The position numbers and the translations under genes were made by a program. Source: Candidatus Culexmicrobium thermophilum (GTDB lineage Archaea; Thermoproteota; Methanomethylicia; Culexarchaeales; B10-G16). From it: DNA of 64,000 nt. The first letter of the stretch is position 1. Every line of letters begins with the position of its first letter. Of this stretch, positions 24,458 to 59,250 are shown piece by piece. The notes below the pieces were generated by a model. The model saw only the letters and a list, made by a program, of their open reading frames with translations. It was not told the origin of the DNA and ran no database searches. The DNA is taken from the NCBI GenBank assembly GCA_025061095.1, contig JANZKB010000001.1, forward strand, positions 1,078 to 65,077. The letters are read 5' to 3'.

Positions 24458-24559
24458 TGCGGGGGGTGGGATTTGAACCCACGCAGGCCTACGCCACGAG
24501 GGATTTCCGGATTTCTCCTCCTGAACCTCGCGCCTTTGACCTGACTCGGCCACCCCCGC
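24458..24559 (-). tRNA. tRNA-Leu (CAG) with ~18-nt intron in anticodon loop
   Basis: minus-strand cloverleaf: acceptor GCGGGGG, anticodon stem CGAGG/CCTCG, loop TTCAGG+intron, long variable arm, T loop TTCAAAT, CCA encoded. Confidence 0.75.
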
Positions 24560-37462: not shown

Positions 37463-37587
37463 GCACCGCCAGCACACCCCTTTCCCAGTGCCTCTCGGAC
37501 ACCAGTACTCGGAAGTGCGGCAGTAGGCTTAACTTCCGGGTTCGGAATGAGACCGGGTGTTTCCCTACTGCCTATGGCCGGCGGTGC
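37463..37587 (-). rRNA. 5S ribosomal RNA (stand-alone)
   Basis: reverse complement reads GCACCGCCGGCCATAGGC...CCGGTCTCATTCCGAACCCGGAAGTTAAGC...GCTGGCGGTGC with pairing termini (helix I). Confidence 0.85.
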
Positions 37588-37680: not shown

Positions 37681-37791
37681 GCCGGGGTCGCCTAGCCTGG
37701 CCCAGGGCGCCGGACTCATAATCAGAAAGGATTGAGGGGTTAAGAAAACGGTGAATTCCGGTTTCCGCGGGTTCGAATCCCGCCCCCGGCA
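37681..37791 (+). tRNA. tRNA-Met (CAT) with ~35-nt intron at/near the anticodon loop
   Basis: acceptor GCCGGGG/CCCCGGC, anticodon stem CCGGA/TCCGG separated by CTCATA+intron, T loop TTCGAAT. Confidence 0.75.
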
Positions 37792-40961: not shown

Positions 40962-42379
40962 TTCGCTATGCCTCCCTCAATAATCTTCTTCAATGCATGG
41001 GCTAGGCGATCCAAACTCTCCTTCGTATGAAGCTCAGTAACACAGTATAAGGCGCTGGCACCTAACTCAGGAAATTTATCGGTGAGATCGATTCCACCGA
41101 AGATATTATAACTTAGCAGATTCCTGTTAATCTCATCAACCGAGAGAGAGGTGCCGTTGAAATCAACCACAAACTCTTTGAAATGTGGTGCTTTAAATCG
41201 CGGGGCTACAACACCTGGAATCTCGGATAAGAGTTTCATGGCATATTGAGATCTCTGCATTATCGTCTTACCAAGCATCTGCATACCATAAGGACCCATG
41301 AGAGAGAGATAGACTCCAGCGGTAATTCCCCATAATGCTGCAGCAGTGCCCACAAACTCCTTCGCCTTCTCCCGCCTCTCAAAGGAGGTCCTCTCAAATG
41401 CTACATCACCGAAACCATACTCACCATCAACAATGGTCTTAGTAATCCCGAAGAGACGTGAAGGATACTCCATCACAAACTTCTCCTCATCAGGAGTAGC
41501 GATGAAACCAGCTAAACCACCACCGAAATTCATATGAATCCCTAGAGGTTGAAGCTCACCGCAGACGATATCAGCATCATAACGACTGGGGGGAACGATT
41601 ACACCGAGAGAGATCGGATCAACACCAACAACAATCAGAGCATCAAACCTGTGGAGAGCATCGGATATCTCAGCGCCATGAGTCTCAATCGGACCAAGGT
41701 AAGATGGATTCTCAAAGTAGACTGCAGCAGTCTCCTCCGAGATCTTAGAATTTAAGTCATCCAAATCCATCATACCGGTCTCAGGATCATGCTTAACCAA
41801 CAAGATCTTCACAACAGGCTCACAATAATTTCTTATAATTGCAAGTCTCTCAGGGGAGATCGTGTCAGATATCAAAACTTCATCCCGCTTCGTGATCCTG
41901 CATGCCATTCTAATGGAGGTGGCGGCAGCCTGACCCCAACTATATGTTGGAACGTTAACAACATCCATCTCCACAAGTTCAGCGACCAAACTCTGATATT
42001 CGAAGAGAGCCTGCCACCTACCATGATCCTCCCACGGCTCACCGGCATATGCAGTCAAGAACTCCGATCTCCGATTGATCTCATCGCATATAGCAGGTAC
42101 ATAATGCTGCCAACATCCACCACCAAGAAAACTAACATAATCATCACACTCCCTATTTTTAGAGAGGATACCCTCAACATGACGCTTCAAATCTGCTTCA
42201 GACTGCAAGGGATCAGGCAGATTTAACACACCCTTAAACTTAAGCTCATCAGGGATGCTTGAGTAGAGTTGATCCATGCTCTCCACGCCTATCTCCCTCA
42301 GCATCTCTTTCTGGATATATGGAGAGGAGTTTGGGATATATGGATGAGCGCACTTCCTTTTAGACCTTTCATTCAACAT
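40958..42379 (-). CDS. gcvPA: glycine dehydrogenase (decarboxylating) subunit 1
   Basis: HPYIPNS N-terminal motif after internal Met; ATGA overlap with gcvPB. Confidence 0.75.
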   Translation of the reverse strand: MLNERSKRKCAHPYIPNSSPYIQKEMLREIGVESMDQLYSSIPDELKFKGVLNLPDPLQSEADLKRHVEGILSKNRECDDYVSFLGGGCWQHYVPAICDEINRRSEFLTAYAGEPWEDHGRWQALFEYQSLVAELVEMDVVNVPTYSWGQAAATSIRMACRITKRDEVLISDTISPERLAIIRNYCEPVVKILLVKHDPETGMMDLDDLNSKISEETAAVYFENPSYLGPIETHGAEISDALHRFDALIVVGVDPISLGVIVPPSRYDADIVCGELQPLGIHMNFGGGLAGFIATPDEEKFVMEYPSRLFGITKTIVDGEYGFGDVAFERTSFERREKAKEFVGTAAALWGITAGVYLSLMGPYGMQMLGKTIMQRSQYAMKLLSEIPGVVAPRFKAPHFKEFVVDFNGTSLSVDEINRNLLSYNIFGGIDLTDKFPELGASALYCVTELHTKESLDRLAHALKKIIEGGIAK

Positions 42380-42398
42380 ATGAATCAACCTCCTAAGA

Positions 42399-43154
42399 TC
42401 AAGCCAACCCTCCACCATCAACAACCAGGATCGCCCCTGTAACCCAACTTGAGAGATCACTCGCAAGGTAAAGAACCGCATTGGCAATGTCTTCAGGCTT
42501 CCCCACACGCTTAATCGGCCTATCAGCAGCCTCCTCCAAAAACTTATTTAAATCAACACCTAACTGACGGGCCTCACTTCGAAGAAGAGGCGTATCTACA
42601 TCTCCAGGACAGATACAGTTAACTCGAATCCCCTCCCTACCATGATCGATAGCCATAGCACGGGTAAGGTTGACAACCCCACCTTTAGAAGCACAGTAGG
42701 CTGCAGCTTTCGGACCGCCCTTTAATCCCCAACCGGAACCAATATTTATGATACAGCCGCCGCCACCCCTAACCATATAGGGAATGAAATGATGGGATGT
42801 AAGATAGATACCTTTAAGATTCACATCTAAGACTAGATCCCACTCCTCCTCACTCATCTCAACGACATTCTTCCTTACGATAACACCAGCACTATTTACA
42901 AGGATATCGATCCTCCCAAAATTTTCATAAACCCTCTCAGCCACCCTCTTACACTGAAGATTCGAAGTAATATCACAACGATAAAATCTCGCATCCACAC
43001 CAACCTCTTCAACTATCTTCAAAGCTTTTCTTCCCCCCTCCTCATCTATATCCAATAGGGCTATGTTCGCACCAGCCTCAGCCAGACGCTTAGCAACACC
43101 CAACCCTATCCCAGAAGCAGCACCAGTAACCACCGCAACCTTCCCATTTAACAT
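42399..43154 (-). CDS. short-chain dehydrogenase/reductase (SDR)
   Basis: GKVAVVTGAASGIG Rossmann motif, YxxxK. Confidence 0.75.
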   Translation of the reverse strand: MLNGKVAVVTGAASGIGLGVAKRLAEAGANIALLDIDEEGGRKALKIVEEVGVDARFYRCDITSNLQCKRVAERVYENFGRIDILVNSAGVIVRKNVVEMSEEEWDLVLDVNLKGIYLTSHHFIPYMVRGGGGCIINIGSGWGLKGGPKAAAYCASKGGVVNLTRAMAIDHGREGIRVNCICPGDVDTPLLRSEARQLGVDLNKFLEEAADRPIKRVGKPEDIANAVLYLASDLSSWVTGAILVVDGGGLA

Positions 43155-43442
43155 TACATGTTTCAATATCTCCTCAGAAACCATAAAATCACACTCCAAG
43201 ATTATATAAAGCTTAAAAGTTAATAACAATTAGTTTAATAATCCCTCAATATCAAATGATAGTGAATGAAGTGAAAGAAATGAAGATAATGATTATACAT
43301 GCTGAGAAGATGTGGTGGAAGATGATAAAACCTGTTAGAATGCCCTTAAAAGATGAAATCAACTCTAAGAATAAAAGAGACATAATACTTGCAGAATTAT
43401 TACGCTAGCATTTCCACCAAAATAAAAAATAGGCCTAACCGC

Positions 43443-43660
43443 TTATTTCGCTCCCCTTTTCAGTCACTTCTTCGGTTAGCGAATCGGTGACCGAAACTGG
43501 TTTTCGCTCACTTTTGGGTAGGAACAAGATTTTTGTTTCTGTCGCCCCGCTTACTTTTCGCTCACCTTCTCGCTCGGTTTCGGTCTCAATTTCGGTCTAT
43601 TTTCGGTCCCCTTTTCGCTCCCCTTTCAGCCCCCGCTCAGTCAATTTTTCGCTCATCTAG
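43443..43660. repeat. degenerate tandem array (8-9 copies) of a TTTTCG(C/G)TC(A/C)C unit plus an inverted repeat TTCGGT-N13-ACCGAA containing GGTGACC
   Basis: direct reading: ...atttcgctcccctttt...ttttcgctcactttt...cttttcgctcaccttctcgctcggtttcggtctcaatttcggtctattttcggtccccttttcgctcccc...tttttcgctcatc. Confidence 0.7.
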
Positions 43661-57155: not shown

Positions 57156-58184
57156 TTATACAGCTTCGCCAATGTAAATGTTATCTTTCACTCTGAGCAG
57201 TCTAACGGTAACTTTGTGTTCAAGGGGAATCTCCCCGGCATTGACAAGTGTGATCACCCTGCTTTTAGCTATCGCAAGTTTTTGGCCTTTAAGCCAGCCT
57301 GGAGCTATAGTTCTAGCCTTCACCTTTTCGAAACGTTTAAACATTATAGGAAGCTTTGGAAGCTTAATTATGTTGAAATCTTCAGGTGAGAGTTTAAGTT
57401 TAACTTTAAATTTTTCTTCCCATAACTTAAGCTTTCTATAGAAATGATACCAAGTAAGCCTCTTCACTCCTTTAGGTTTCCTTCCATATTTATGTACCTC
57501 GTATTTCTGTATGCCGAGGGGAGGCCATCTTTTCCCGGCACCTATCGCTAAAGCATATGAAATTATTTTAGGCATCTCCGAATCGTTGATTGGGGAAAGC
57601 CATACAGGAGCTATTAATAGATCAATATTTGATGAAGCAGCAGCATATTCTGCCATTTCTTTCACATAATTAACATTGTAAAGACGAGAGTTAGCTAACT
57701 TTTTGGCGAGCGATGCATCTAGAGCATCTATTGAAAGGTTCAATCTGGATAGTCCGGAGTCTGAGAGTTCATCAATTAAATGTTCAGTTAGCAGAATGCC
57801 ATGGGTTTGCATAGATATTACTTTGATTCCTTTAATCTCCGACAGTTTTTGTACTAGTTCAACTATATGTGGATATGTGAGGGGATCTCCAACAGTATCT
57901 ATATGGGCTTCAATGTTTTTTCCACCTTTATATTTAACTAGATTTCTAATTTCACTGATCAAATAGTCTAGGTCAACTATATATTCTACCTGTCTCCACC
58001 GTGATTTTGGACCGGCGTCGGTGGAGCAAAATATACATGAGAGTAAACATGAAGATGAGGGACGAACCTGTATGATATTGGTTCCCCTATCTATTAATCC
58101 GAAGGCTATACAGCCATATAGAGGAATACCGCTATTTTCATCGATTCTTATTATTGGACGAACGGTATTGCCAGTATGCTGCAA
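57156..58184 (-). CDS. radical SAM protein
   Basis: CLLSCIFC (CxxxCxxC) cluster; C-terminal beta-rich (TRAM-like?) region. Confidence 0.6.
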   Translation of the reverse strand: MQHTGNTVRPIIRIDENSGIPLYGCIAFGLIDRGTNIIQVRPSSSCLLSCIFCSTDAGPKSRWRQVEYIVDLDYLISEIRNLVKYKGGKNIEAHIDTVGDPLTYPHIVELVQKLSEIKGIKVISMQTHGILLTEHLIDELSDSGLSRLNLSIDALDASLAKKLANSRLYNVNYVKEMAEYAAASSNIDLLIAPVWLSPINDSEMPKIISYALAIGAGKRWPPLGIQKYEVHKYGRKPKGVKRLTWYHFYRKLKLWEEKFKVKLKLSPEDFNIIKLPKLPIMFKRFEKVKARTIAPGWLKGQKLAIAKSRVITLVNAGEIPLEHKVTVRLLRVKDNIYIGEAV

Positions 58185-58250
58185 AGTTCAACCTCGAGTT
58201 AAATAAATGAAGTGATAAATTTATTTTCATCTGTCACTTTACCATTATAT

Positions 58251-58456
58251 GGGGACCCACACGCGACGGACCGGGGGAGAGGGAGACTCCATCTATGAAC
58301 CTAGGGGTACCCAAGTGTGGGACATTGATCCCCGCCGGGTGAGGGGGGCCGAGAGCCCAACGTTGAGAGAGCCTATAGAGAGAGAAGCAACTTCTCCCAA
58401 TGAGAATAGGTGATCGCGTTTGGGGGAAAGGTCGCCTCTCACCCGCCAATATAGTC
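58251..58456 (+). ncRNA. unassigned GC-rich structured-RNA candidate (~205 nt); strand uncertain
   Basis: ~65% GC island with no sensible ORF in an AT-rich intergenic gap; local hairpins (GGGCCGAGAGCCC, GGGGTACCC, AGAAGcaaCTTCT), possible terminal pairing ACGCGA/TCGCGT, TATA-like AAATTTATTTT ~27 nt upstream on + strand. Confidence 0.4.
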
Positions 58457-58460
58457 CTTC

Positions 58461-58958
58461 TCAAGAAACAATAATGGAACAATTTGAATTAAAAAATTTA
58501 ATATAGTGGCGTTCATTTCTTCTAATTTTAGTTGAAGAAATCGGCCTATAGTCAAAATCCTTTACCAATGGAATTACTATAACTTTCAATGGTGGAAGCA
58601 ATTTACTTCGCCTTATCCTGTTTATTTCCAATGCTCTTGCCAATGTTTCCTCACTTACAATGATTGCGGAGATTTCCCTCTCAGTTATTGTTGGACCGTA
58701 AGGATCTTCTAAGATCACTATTTCAGCTCTATGTAGCCATCCTTTATCTTTGAGGAAGGATTTCAACTTCTCTATTCTTACGTTTAGTGGAGGAACATAA
58801 TGATTTTTCCCCCTTGCTAAATTGTCGCTTGTAACGCCTATAATAACCTTTTCACCTATTTCAAAGGATTTAGATAACAGATGAATATGTCCTTCGTGAA
58901 GAAAGTCGAAAGTTCCACCTACAGCTACAAGGGGATACTTGGAGGGCATATAGTTCAC
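58461..58958 (-). CDS. archaeal phosphopantetheine adenylyltransferase (cytidylyltransferase family)
   Basis: VGGTFDFLHEGHIHLL nucleotidyltransferase motif. Confidence 0.7.
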   Translation of the reverse strand: MNYMPSKYPLVAVGGTFDFLHEGHIHLLSKSFEIGEKVIIGVTSDNLARGKNHYVPPLNVRIEKLKSFLKDKGWLHRAEIVILEDPYGPTITEREISAIIVSEETLARALEINRIRRSKLLPPLKVIVIPLVKDFDYRPISSTKIRRNERHYIKFFNSNCSIIVS

Positions 58959-59086: not shown

Positions 59087-59250
59087 GGGGCCGAAATTTC
59101 GGGTTGGGACATATGAGAGCAATAAGCCGTAGCTCAGTAAGGGAGAGCGGCGGGCTCCAGAGCTTGCCAGCTTAAAGACCGATAAGGGATGATATAGCTC
59201 TGGAGCGCAGAGAAACCCGTTGGTCGTGGGTTCAAATCCCACCGGCCCCA
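59087..59250 (+). tRNA. tRNA-Trp (CCA) with two introns (one in acceptor stem/position 7-8 region, one in anticodon loop)
   Basis: exons GGGGCCG...TAGCTC AGTAAGGGA GAGC G GCGGG CTCCAG...A CCCGT TGGTC GTGGG TTCAAAT CCCAC CGGCCCC A CCA; 36-nt and ~53-nt intervening sequences. Confidence 0.7.

Follow-up and report, generated by a model that had tools for sequence, protein, structure and literature searches.

A GC-rich island between a radical-SAM gene and a PPAT-like gene

A GC-rich island is present at 58251-58456 of a 64-kb stretch of contig JANZKB010000001.1 from Candidatus (Ca.) Culexmicrobium thermophilum, and we identify it as the probable gene of a noncoding RNA (ncRNA) of the box H/ACA type. 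The whole 64-kb stretch is referred to here as the window, and all coordinates are window positions. The GC content of the island is 59.2% (60.1% for the core, 58251-58443), against 37.7% and 34.3% in the 300 nt to its left and right and 38.3% for the whole window, and the peak in 100-nt windows across the island is 66%. A first-pass annotation made from the sequence had pointed to a GC-rich island at this place, which is borne out; the enrichment it described is real, although its overall figure of ~65% GC against flanks of ~35-40% is too high, the actual value being about 60%. It had also singled out the island as the only unassigned segment of stable-RNA-like composition, and indeed, among the 80-nt windows of at least 62% GC in the 64 kb, the island is the sole one without a tRNA or 5S rRNA match. 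Moderately GC-rich patches (55-59% GC in 80-nt windows) also occur in series at 41295-43644, probably inside protein-coding genes. The features of the locus are as follows.

57156-58184, minus strand: radical-SAM gene, divergent from the RNA and outside it; synteny anchor
58215-58227, plus strand: TATA-like promoter box ATAAATTTATTTT, read directly; the first G of the predicted RNA follows about 24 nt downstream
58251-58445, plus strand: whole predicted RNA of ~195 nt, made up of two H/ACA-type hairpin units in tandem, with a basal helix closing each (from conservation in eight sequences, fold and covariation)
58461-58958, minus strand: cytidylyltransferase-like (PPAT-like) gene, PF01467, convergent with the RNA and outside it; synteny anchor

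All eight loci that contain the element (see below) have an AT-rich TATA-like box on the plus strand, placed 20-30 nt before the first basal helix. The box of the window had been noticed, correctly, in the first-pass annotation, which put it ~27 nt upstream. Three open reading frames (ORFs) cross the island, at 58234-58482 (minus strand), 58249-58413 (plus strand) and 58293-58442 (minus strand), and not just the one previously listed.

Distribution and synteny of the element

The radical-SAM protein has one 99%-identical cluster, from metagenomes of the same species, followed by matches of 62-69% identity named Culexmicrobium, Methanomethylicia/Verstraetearchaeota, and Nezhaarchaeales. The best relatives are metagenome-assembled genomes (MAGs) of Culexarchaeia and Methanomethylicia, and the premise that this DNA belongs to the Thermoproteaceae is therefore wrong. 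The PPAT-like gene is followed, after a gap of 270-425 nt, by the radical-SAM gene, (THUMP methyltransferase), and L10e. This order is shared by Culexmicrobium cathedralense (loci L005/L019), a Guaymas contig (L006/L018), a Verstraetearchaeota MAG (L147), and Methanomethylicia (L007-L009, L017). Between the PPAT-like and radical-SAM genes, the element is also present in seven other genomes, giving eight distinct sequences including that of the window, and this syntenic copy was found in Culexmicrobium, Culexarchaeum, and Methanomethylicia MAGs despite the 62-69% identity of the flanking protein. Among the assemblies that carry the element are GCA_025061115.1, GCA_038879675.1, that of Culexarchaeum nevadense (contig JANZKA010000001.1), and ERZ23499514 and ERZ23499525 (SPET22-1). 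When the genome collection was searched with a pattern of two conserved blocks, six species representatives were recovered, all of them Culexarchaeia or Methanomethylicota except one labelled Nitrososphaerota. The element is absent upstream of the radical-SAM gene in Nezhaarchaeales and in a Thermoprotei MAG, where the gap is 56-61 nt.

The locus L018 (CAYWZQ010000013.1) carries the title "uncultured Nitrososphaerota archaeon". Its RNA region (~310 nt compared) is identical to that of the Guaymas contig L006, the PPAT/radical-SAM order is the same, and the sequence groups with those of Culexarchaeia/Methanomethylicia. As a taxonomic label, the title looks questionable.

A shared two-hairpin fold

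Each of the two units has, from the outside inwards, a basal helix (P0), an internal loop that reads G-N-A-C/A-A on its 3' side, a lower helix (H1), a large internal loop, an upper helix (H2), a kink-turn (K-turn), and an apical loop. Comparative folding with the orthologous regions gave a shared two-hairpin fold: it is the independent minimum free energy (MFE) structure of each of the seven homologs folded, and RNAalifold recovers the same helices independently. The hairpins are separated by one to two unpaired nt in the window (58334-58335) and by up to ~5 nt in the homologs. The parts of the fold, all on the plus strand, are listed here.

58251-58255: unit 1 P0, 5' strand GGGGA, paired with 58329-58333 (UCCCC) in the MFE structure
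58256-58262: unit 1 H1, 5' strand CCCACAC, paired with 58315-58321 (GUGUGGG)
58263-58270: unit 1 pocket, predicted 5' guide strand GCGACGGA; family consensus AGACGGA followed by C
58271-58305: unit 1 H2 and K-turn, with H2 formed by 58271-58276 and 58299-58305
58277-58298: unit 1 K-turn, with GA at 58277-58278, C-stem and loop at 58279-58293, 3-nt bulge UAU at 58294-58296, and GA at 58297-58298
58306-58314: unit 1 pocket, predicted 3' guide strand GGU-ACCCA-A; ACCCA invariant, first three bases lineage-variable
58322-58324: unit 1 ANA box (ACA), 16 nt past the H2 closing pair
58336-58350: unit 2 P0, 5' strand CGGGUGAGGGGGGCC, paired with 58430-58445 in the MFE structure
58356-58362: unit 2 H1, 5' strand CCCAACG, paired with 58417-58424 (CGUUUGGG, one bulged U)
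58363-58370: unit 2 pocket, predicted 5' guide strand UUGAGAGA; GAGAG invariant
58371-58411: unit 2 H2 and K-turn, with H2 formed by 58371-58376 and 58406-58411 and closed by a G.U pair
58378-58403: unit 2 K-turn, with GA at 58378-58379, C-stem and loop at 58380-58398, bulge AAU at 58399-58401, and GA at 58402-58403
58412-58416: unit 2 pocket, predicted 3' guide strand GAUCG, then C; UGAUCGC invariant
58427-58429: unit 2 ANA box, AAA in the window and ACA in the other seven sequences

In the seven-sequence alignment, paired cells make up 95.1%, and compensatory double changes occur at 15 of the 33 pairs. Shuffled alignments gave 7.7 ± 1.6 compensatory pairs and none out of 500 reached 15, and when the pairing partners were slid by one to three columns the number dropped to 0-3. 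With eight sequences per unit, compensatory pairs number 9/17 in unit 1 and 6/17 in unit 2. They are distributed over H1 (100% paired in the eight sequences with four of six pairs compensatory in unit 1; 97.5% paired with two of five counted pairs compensatory in unit 2, for example CCCAA/UUGGG versus CCCGC/GCGGG) and H2 (five of seven pairs in unit 1, three of six in unit 2). The basal helix persists in unrelated sequences, with 4-21 bp for unit 1 P0 and 12-16 bp for unit 2 P0 in all seven homologs folded. Single-sequence folding energy is unremarkable (z = −1.7 for the plus strand and −0.9 for the minus strand), and the structural signal comes from the comparison of homologs and not from thermodynamics.

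The pattern is guide-like: the helices vary and the internal-loop strands are fixed (GACGGAC and ACCCA in unit 1, the former invariant in 8/8 sequences; GAGAG and UGAUCGC in unit 2). The H2/K-turn regions retain the invariant motifs GAG and AUGA in unit 1 and GAG and CAAUGA in unit 2. No complementarity that would allow a pseudoknot among the four invariant loop strands was seen on inspection by eye.

The RNA is assigned to the plus strand because invariant G.U pairs (for example columns 16-56 of alignment A6, GU in 8/8) would read A.C on the opposite strand, and because the conserved TATA box lies upstream on the plus strand. The distances between invariant blocks take every value modulo 3, and L018, L015, and L147 have stops in all six frames, so we conclude that nothing is translated. 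The earlier proposal of a structured non-coding RNA, read from the plus strand, is upheld by conservation in eight genomes, compensatory covariation, and the conserved TATA box.

The element as a probable box H/ACA-type RNA

We conclude, with good though not complete confidence, that the island is a plus-strand gene with its own TATA promoter, encoding an ncRNA of ~195 nt composed of two tandem box H/ACA-type guide units. In archaeal H/ACA RNAs, which contain one to three motifs, H1 has at least 7 bp and H2 has 5-6 bp, the strands of the loop are 5-11 nt long, a K-turn or K-loop caps the motif, and the 3' ANA is separated from the upper ("GA") stem by 14-16 nt (PMC2377435, PMC4652768); productive folds in Pyrococcus have an ANA spacing of 14-15 nt (PMC4652768). 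In both units of the eight sequences, H1 measures 6-8 bp and H2 5-7 bp, with loop strands of 7-10 and 5-9 nt. Between the loop and the K-turn, 9-10 layers are stacked, compared with 10 in the Pyrococcus model. In most units the K-turn is canonical in sequence, with GA, a C-stem, a 3-nt bulge (UAU, GAU, or AAU) and GA, the bulged strand being the 3' one; unit 1 of L017 is K-loop-like, and the GA dinucleotides are invariant in 16/16 units.

In all 16 units (8/8 for unit 1), the spacing between the H2 closing pair and the ANA triplet is exactly 16 nt, within the published 14-16 nt. In unit 2 this distance is taken from the last C-G pair and becomes 15 nt if the invariant closing G.U pair is counted; it is also 15 nt if a stacked mismatch in unit 1 is counted. 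The triplet is ACA in 14 units, including seven of the eight copies of unit 1, and AAA in the remaining two (unit 2 of the window and unit 1 of L017). Units 1 and 2 are also colinear with each other between the K-turn and the ANA. In both, the triplet sits in an internal loop closed by the additional basal helix of 4-21 bp, and there is no free 3' tail or linker.

Conservation, fold, covariation, K-turn and ANA motifs with fixed spacing, the promoter box, and the lack of coding potential directly support this assignment, and by analogy with studied archaeal H/ACA RNAs the element would be expressed, bound by protein, and catalytic. L7Ae would bind the K-turn at the top of each unit, and the Cbf5-Nop10-Gar1 complex would dock on the lower helix H1 and the ANA triplet. 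The two invariant strands of each pocket would then form duplexes with target RNA that flank a uridine, the substrate for pseudouridine formation by Cbf5.

A close, experimentally characterized counterpart in design is sR-h45 of Haloferax volcanii, a two-hairpin H/ACA RNA whose first stem-loop (SL1) makes Ψ2605 (PMC7075261). Like the island RNA, sR-h45 has two H/ACA hairpins, each with a K-turn and an ANA/ACA, and an internal ANA after the 5' hairpin (PMC7075261). There is no sequence homology between them, and the 56-nt linker of sR-h45 contrasts with the nearly abutting island hairpins, each closed by its basal helix. The Pyrococcus H/ACA sRNAs (Pab21, Pab35, Pab40, Pab91, Pab105, Pab160; HgcE, HgcF, HgcG, and relatives) share the motif architecture and metric rules with the island RNA, namely a lower helix, an upper helix of 5-7 bp with a K-turn or K-loop, a loop whose strands measure 5-11 nt, and an ANA ~14-16 nt from the upper helix. 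They differ in that there is no covariance-model similarity, the island spacing is long (16 nt in unit 1), the island ANA is enclosed by a basal helix, and rRNA targets have been demonstrated for Pyrococcus, whereas those of the island RNA are candidates by complementarity. The Pyrobaculum H/ACA variants also come from Thermoproteota and have scaffolds that depart from the euryarchaeal canon, including degenerate ANA/NCA boxes; they lose the lower helix and often the box, whereas the island RNA keeps both and has a further helix below the box.

The island was scanned with Rfam 15 covariance models, at gathering thresholds and then at E ≤ 10, using a 401-nt region as well as stretches of 79 nt and 81 nt. 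At gathering thresholds there was no match for the island, and at E ≤ 10 the island and each half alone gave chance matches only (mir-2057, long noncoding RNA fragments, sR24). Scanning the seven homologous loci revealed no family at the position of the element. Because no curated Rfam H/ACA family matches, the RNA is a new family of a known kind, common to Culexarchaeia and Methanomethylicia, rather than a member of a described family.

Candidate target sites in rRNA

Potential targets were sought in E. coli rRNA, in 120 archaeal rRNA loci (Arch915 motif), and in the stable RNAs of the window; the rRNA of the guide-bearing genomes themselves was not among them. The best lead is a pairing suggested by complementarity between the unit 1 5' guide and a conserved (G)UCCGUCU of 23S rRNA preceding (U/A)GAAACACGG. 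The guide, AGACGGA(C), complements (G)UCCGUCU exactly, and in TACK-type 23S rRNA this segment stands directly before (U/A)GAAACACGGGCC. UCCGUCU is present in 16 of 19 TACK-type 23S loci, and only 0.6% of 7-mers are equally widespread. GGGU, the complement of ACCC, is found 6 nt upstream of UCCGUCU in several loci; the sequence in between is variable and often lacks U.

A second site for unit 1 is in the peptidyl transferase center (PTC), where its cores (ACCCAG and GACGG) can pair with the CUGGGU..CCGUC segment that is used by sR-h45 SL1 for Ψ2605. The segment CUGGGU-UUAGA-CCGUC is universally conserved, being present in 24/24 loci that cover the region. The island pairing leaves five target bases (UUAGA) unpaired, compared with UA for sR-h45, and two invariant guide bases are noncomplementary.

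For unit 2, the 3' guide GAUCGC complements GCGAUC-U-A, present in most of the archaeal 23S loci read; other archaeal loci have GUGAUC, UCGAUC, or ACGAUC at this site, and the site U corresponds to E. coli U688. The unit 2 5' guide fits beside GCGAUC only in L135 and L139, where the rRNA reads UUCUU. The candidate 23S regions are GUCCGUCU(U/A)GAAACACGG, GCGAUCUA, and the positions equivalent to E. coli 2584-2586.

Other sites were rejected. At the position of the best site in E. coli rRNA, helix-39 CGGGUG/CUAAC/GUCCGUC, the hairpin of archaeal 23S rRNA is a different one and longer. Helix 69, which sR-h45 SL2 targets, fits the unit 2 5' guide only, and unit 2 does not match it. The PTC segment 2501-2516 allows 4+5 bp only, and the 16S decoding-site region allows 5+4-5 bp in some lineages only. 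The window's own stable RNAs, 5S rRNA and tRNAs among them, yielded no target; UGGGU of the tRNA T-arm is not matched by the 5' guide.

The search was extended through spurious antisense ORFs inside 23S genes: 257 such "proteins" led to five further 23S loci. The DNA flanking these loci has 44-53% GC, compared with 33-42% in the guide-bearing genomes, and they therefore come from other organisms. At least 257 public "proteins" (for example P0121-P0240; loci L140-L144) are antisense translations of archaeal 23S rRNA, recognizable by the motifs ELAITGLDW, GLDRPVS, and ARVSRR; they are gene-calling artifacts, some with hundreds of member sequences. The 23S rRNA of L142 (minus strand of the locus) has its domain II and PTC motifs 3.57 kb apart, compared with 2.04 kb in L140, which implies insertions of ~1.5 kb, probably introns.

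Weighing the H/ACA guide assignment

Several observations weigh against a pair of ordinary H/ACA guide units. An ANA enclosed by a basal helix was not found described in the literature searched, and the enclosure might hinder binding of the Cbf5 PUA domain. The 16-nt spacing of unit 1 is at the upper edge of the 14-16 nt range, and two of the 16 units have AAA instead of ACA. None of the curated Rfam H/ACA families (for example HgcE, HgcF, HgcG) matches the island, its single units, or the seven homologous loci. A loose H/ACA descriptor matches random sequence at ~4 hits per 128 kb, and a descriptor scan of the window for further H/ACA units obtained none, the hit rates being the same in real and shuffled sequence and the true units scoring below the noise. 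Since the descriptor is nonspecific, the assignment rests on conservation, covariation, and the exact spacing in 16 units, and not on motifs in a single sequence.

On the target side, no complete bipartite target, with two duplexes around an unpaired UN, was found for either unit in more than 120 archaeal loci and E. coli rRNA. The candidate sites leave 5-6 target bases unpaired or match one guide strand only, and GCGAUCU is not statistically unusual, 8.8% of 7-mers being equally widespread. The lack of a clean rRNA target may reflect the composition of the search, to which the lineage's own rRNA did not contribute; as the missing pocket halves fall in lineage-variable rRNA, that rRNA is what a complete match calls for.

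The main alternative, which we regard as unlikely, is a K-turn RNA with H/ACA-like architecture that does not direct pseudouridylation, acting instead as a chaperone of rRNA folding or processing (compare eukaryotic snR30/U17) or as another L7Ae ribonucleoprotein (RNP) scaffold, with the invariant loops as binding sites rather than catalytic pockets. It would account for the lack of a canonical unpaired-U target in the rRNA searched and for the atypical basal helices around the ANA. The best-supported pairing, of unit 1 with GGGU-N6-GUCCGUCU, leaves a 6-nt target loop that is U-free in several lineages, and an alternative drawing of the unit 2 loop closes it into an irregular helix through G.A and A.G mismatches (pairs 157-209, 159-207, and 160-206). 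However, the scaffold features for Cbf5 and L7Ae are kept with exact spacing in 16/16 units, which is hard to explain unless a canonical RNP assembles, and the missing target may reflect the absence of the cognate rRNA from the search. To our knowledge, no nonmodifying H/ACA RNA has been documented in archaea.

A related and rather improbable scenario is that the units are "clamped", with the basal helix locking the ANA in an internal loop. The pockets would then engage rRNA noncanonically around a 5-6-nt target loop, and the RNA might act as a chaperone or as a modifier of atypical geometry, as a lineage-specific innovation of Culexarchaeia and Methanomethylicia. Candidate sites for such an interaction would be the 23S GGGU-N6-GUCCGUCU or the PTC stretch containing U2585 and U2586.

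It is very unlikely that the element acts in cis on the minus strand, whether as a long structured terminator or 3' end for the PPAT-like mRNA or as the leader at the 5' end of the radical-SAM mRNA. It does lie, on that strand, exactly between the PPAT-like stop (58461) and the radical-SAM start (58184), and the gene order is conserved. Yet the invariant G.U pairs would become A.C on the minus strand; the K-turn, the ANA, and the conserved TATA box are all plus-strand features; and the lineages without the element (Nezhaarchaeales and the Thermoprotei MAG) retain the radical-SAM gene with its 56-61-nt upstream gap.

We attach next to no probability to the idea, raised in the first-pass annotation, of a minimal (type T-like) RNase P RNA, or to another known housekeeping RNA such as signal recognition particle (SRP) RNA. 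The size of ~200 nt and the GC-rich composition would suit either, and the string GGGGGAAAGG is faintly similar to conserved region (CR) I in this single sequence. However, RNaseP_arch, RNaseP-T, and Archaea_SRP have no match at E ≤ 10 on the island or on single units, nor does a related model match in the seven homologous loci; for SRP RNA, where no helix-8 motif had been recognized by eye, Archaea_SRP likewise gave nothing at the gathering score. The supposed CR-I string, GGGGGAAAGGUCGCC, is not conserved, homologs having GGGGGACAGCUCC, GGGGAACAGGGAAG, and GGGGUACACUCAC, with the ANA triplet alone kept. There is no CR-V and no P4 pseudoknot or other P4-type long-range pairing, but two separate hairpins instead. 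Type T RNase P RNA belongs to the Thermoproteaceae, which is not the lineage of this genome; the resemblance is limited to size (~200 nt), high GC, and archaeal origin, and the fold and the lineage are different.

Box C/D sRNAs have terminal C (RUGAUGA) and D (CUGA) boxes, internal C'/D' boxes, and a length of ~50-70 nt. A box C/D sRNA was rejected: the sole match to this class is sR24, at 10.8 bits and E = 3, and the GA motifs of the island RNA are internal K-turns at the hairpin tips and have no CUGA partner.

A small protein-coding gene, for example the leaderless 54-aa ORF 58249-58413 on the plus strand or the 82-aa minus-strand ORF, can be dismissed as having a negligible likelihood, for although there are ORFs on both strands and an ATG spaced roughly as expected from the TATA box in the window, L015, and L147, the ATG is missing in L017, L019, and L014, the spacing of conserved blocks varies by non-multiples of 3, stops fill all six frames in L018, L015, and L147, and the substitutions follow compensatory pairing and are not codon-like.

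Implications for Culexarchaeia and Methanomethylicia

Culexarchaeia and Methanomethylicia, two archaeal classes recognized only recently and studied very little, gain a conserved ncRNA gene with the probable H/ACA-type RNA; a methanogen of Methanomethylicia is now in culture. No H/ACA RNA for either class was found described in Rfam or in the literature searched. The two units, the invariant pocket sequences, and the syntenic position together provide a model for annotation, and the basal helix raises the structural question of whether Cbf5 could use an ANA box enclosed in this way. A false lead is also removed, there being no new minimal RNase P RNA at this locus in these genomes.

Neighboring tRNA and 5S rRNA genes

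Other stable RNA genes of the window were noted in the course of the analysis. An intron-containing tRNA gene of ~120 nt at 59126-59246 (plus strand; Rfam tRNA 39.3 bits, model positions 4-67), missed by ARAGORN, lies one gene away from the H/ACA-type RNA, and its position is kept in all related loci: L019 3707-3829, L014 5457-5579, L018 7018-7137, L015 3803-3922, L017 6366-6485, L147 1327-1455, and L016 4763-4891. Two long-intron tRNA genes, 37681-37791 (plus strand) and 24458-24559 (minus strand), score 49.2 and 48.5 bits with the Rfam tRNA model and were not called by ARAGORN. A stand-alone 5S rRNA gene at 37464-37585 (minus strand) is unlinked to 16S-23S and lies 21 kb from the H/ACA-type RNA in the window; in several relatives the 5S rRNA is within about 2-4 kb of the H/ACA-type RNA (5S positions L018 2113-2234, L014 963-1084, L147 4648-4768, and L015 7136-7256).

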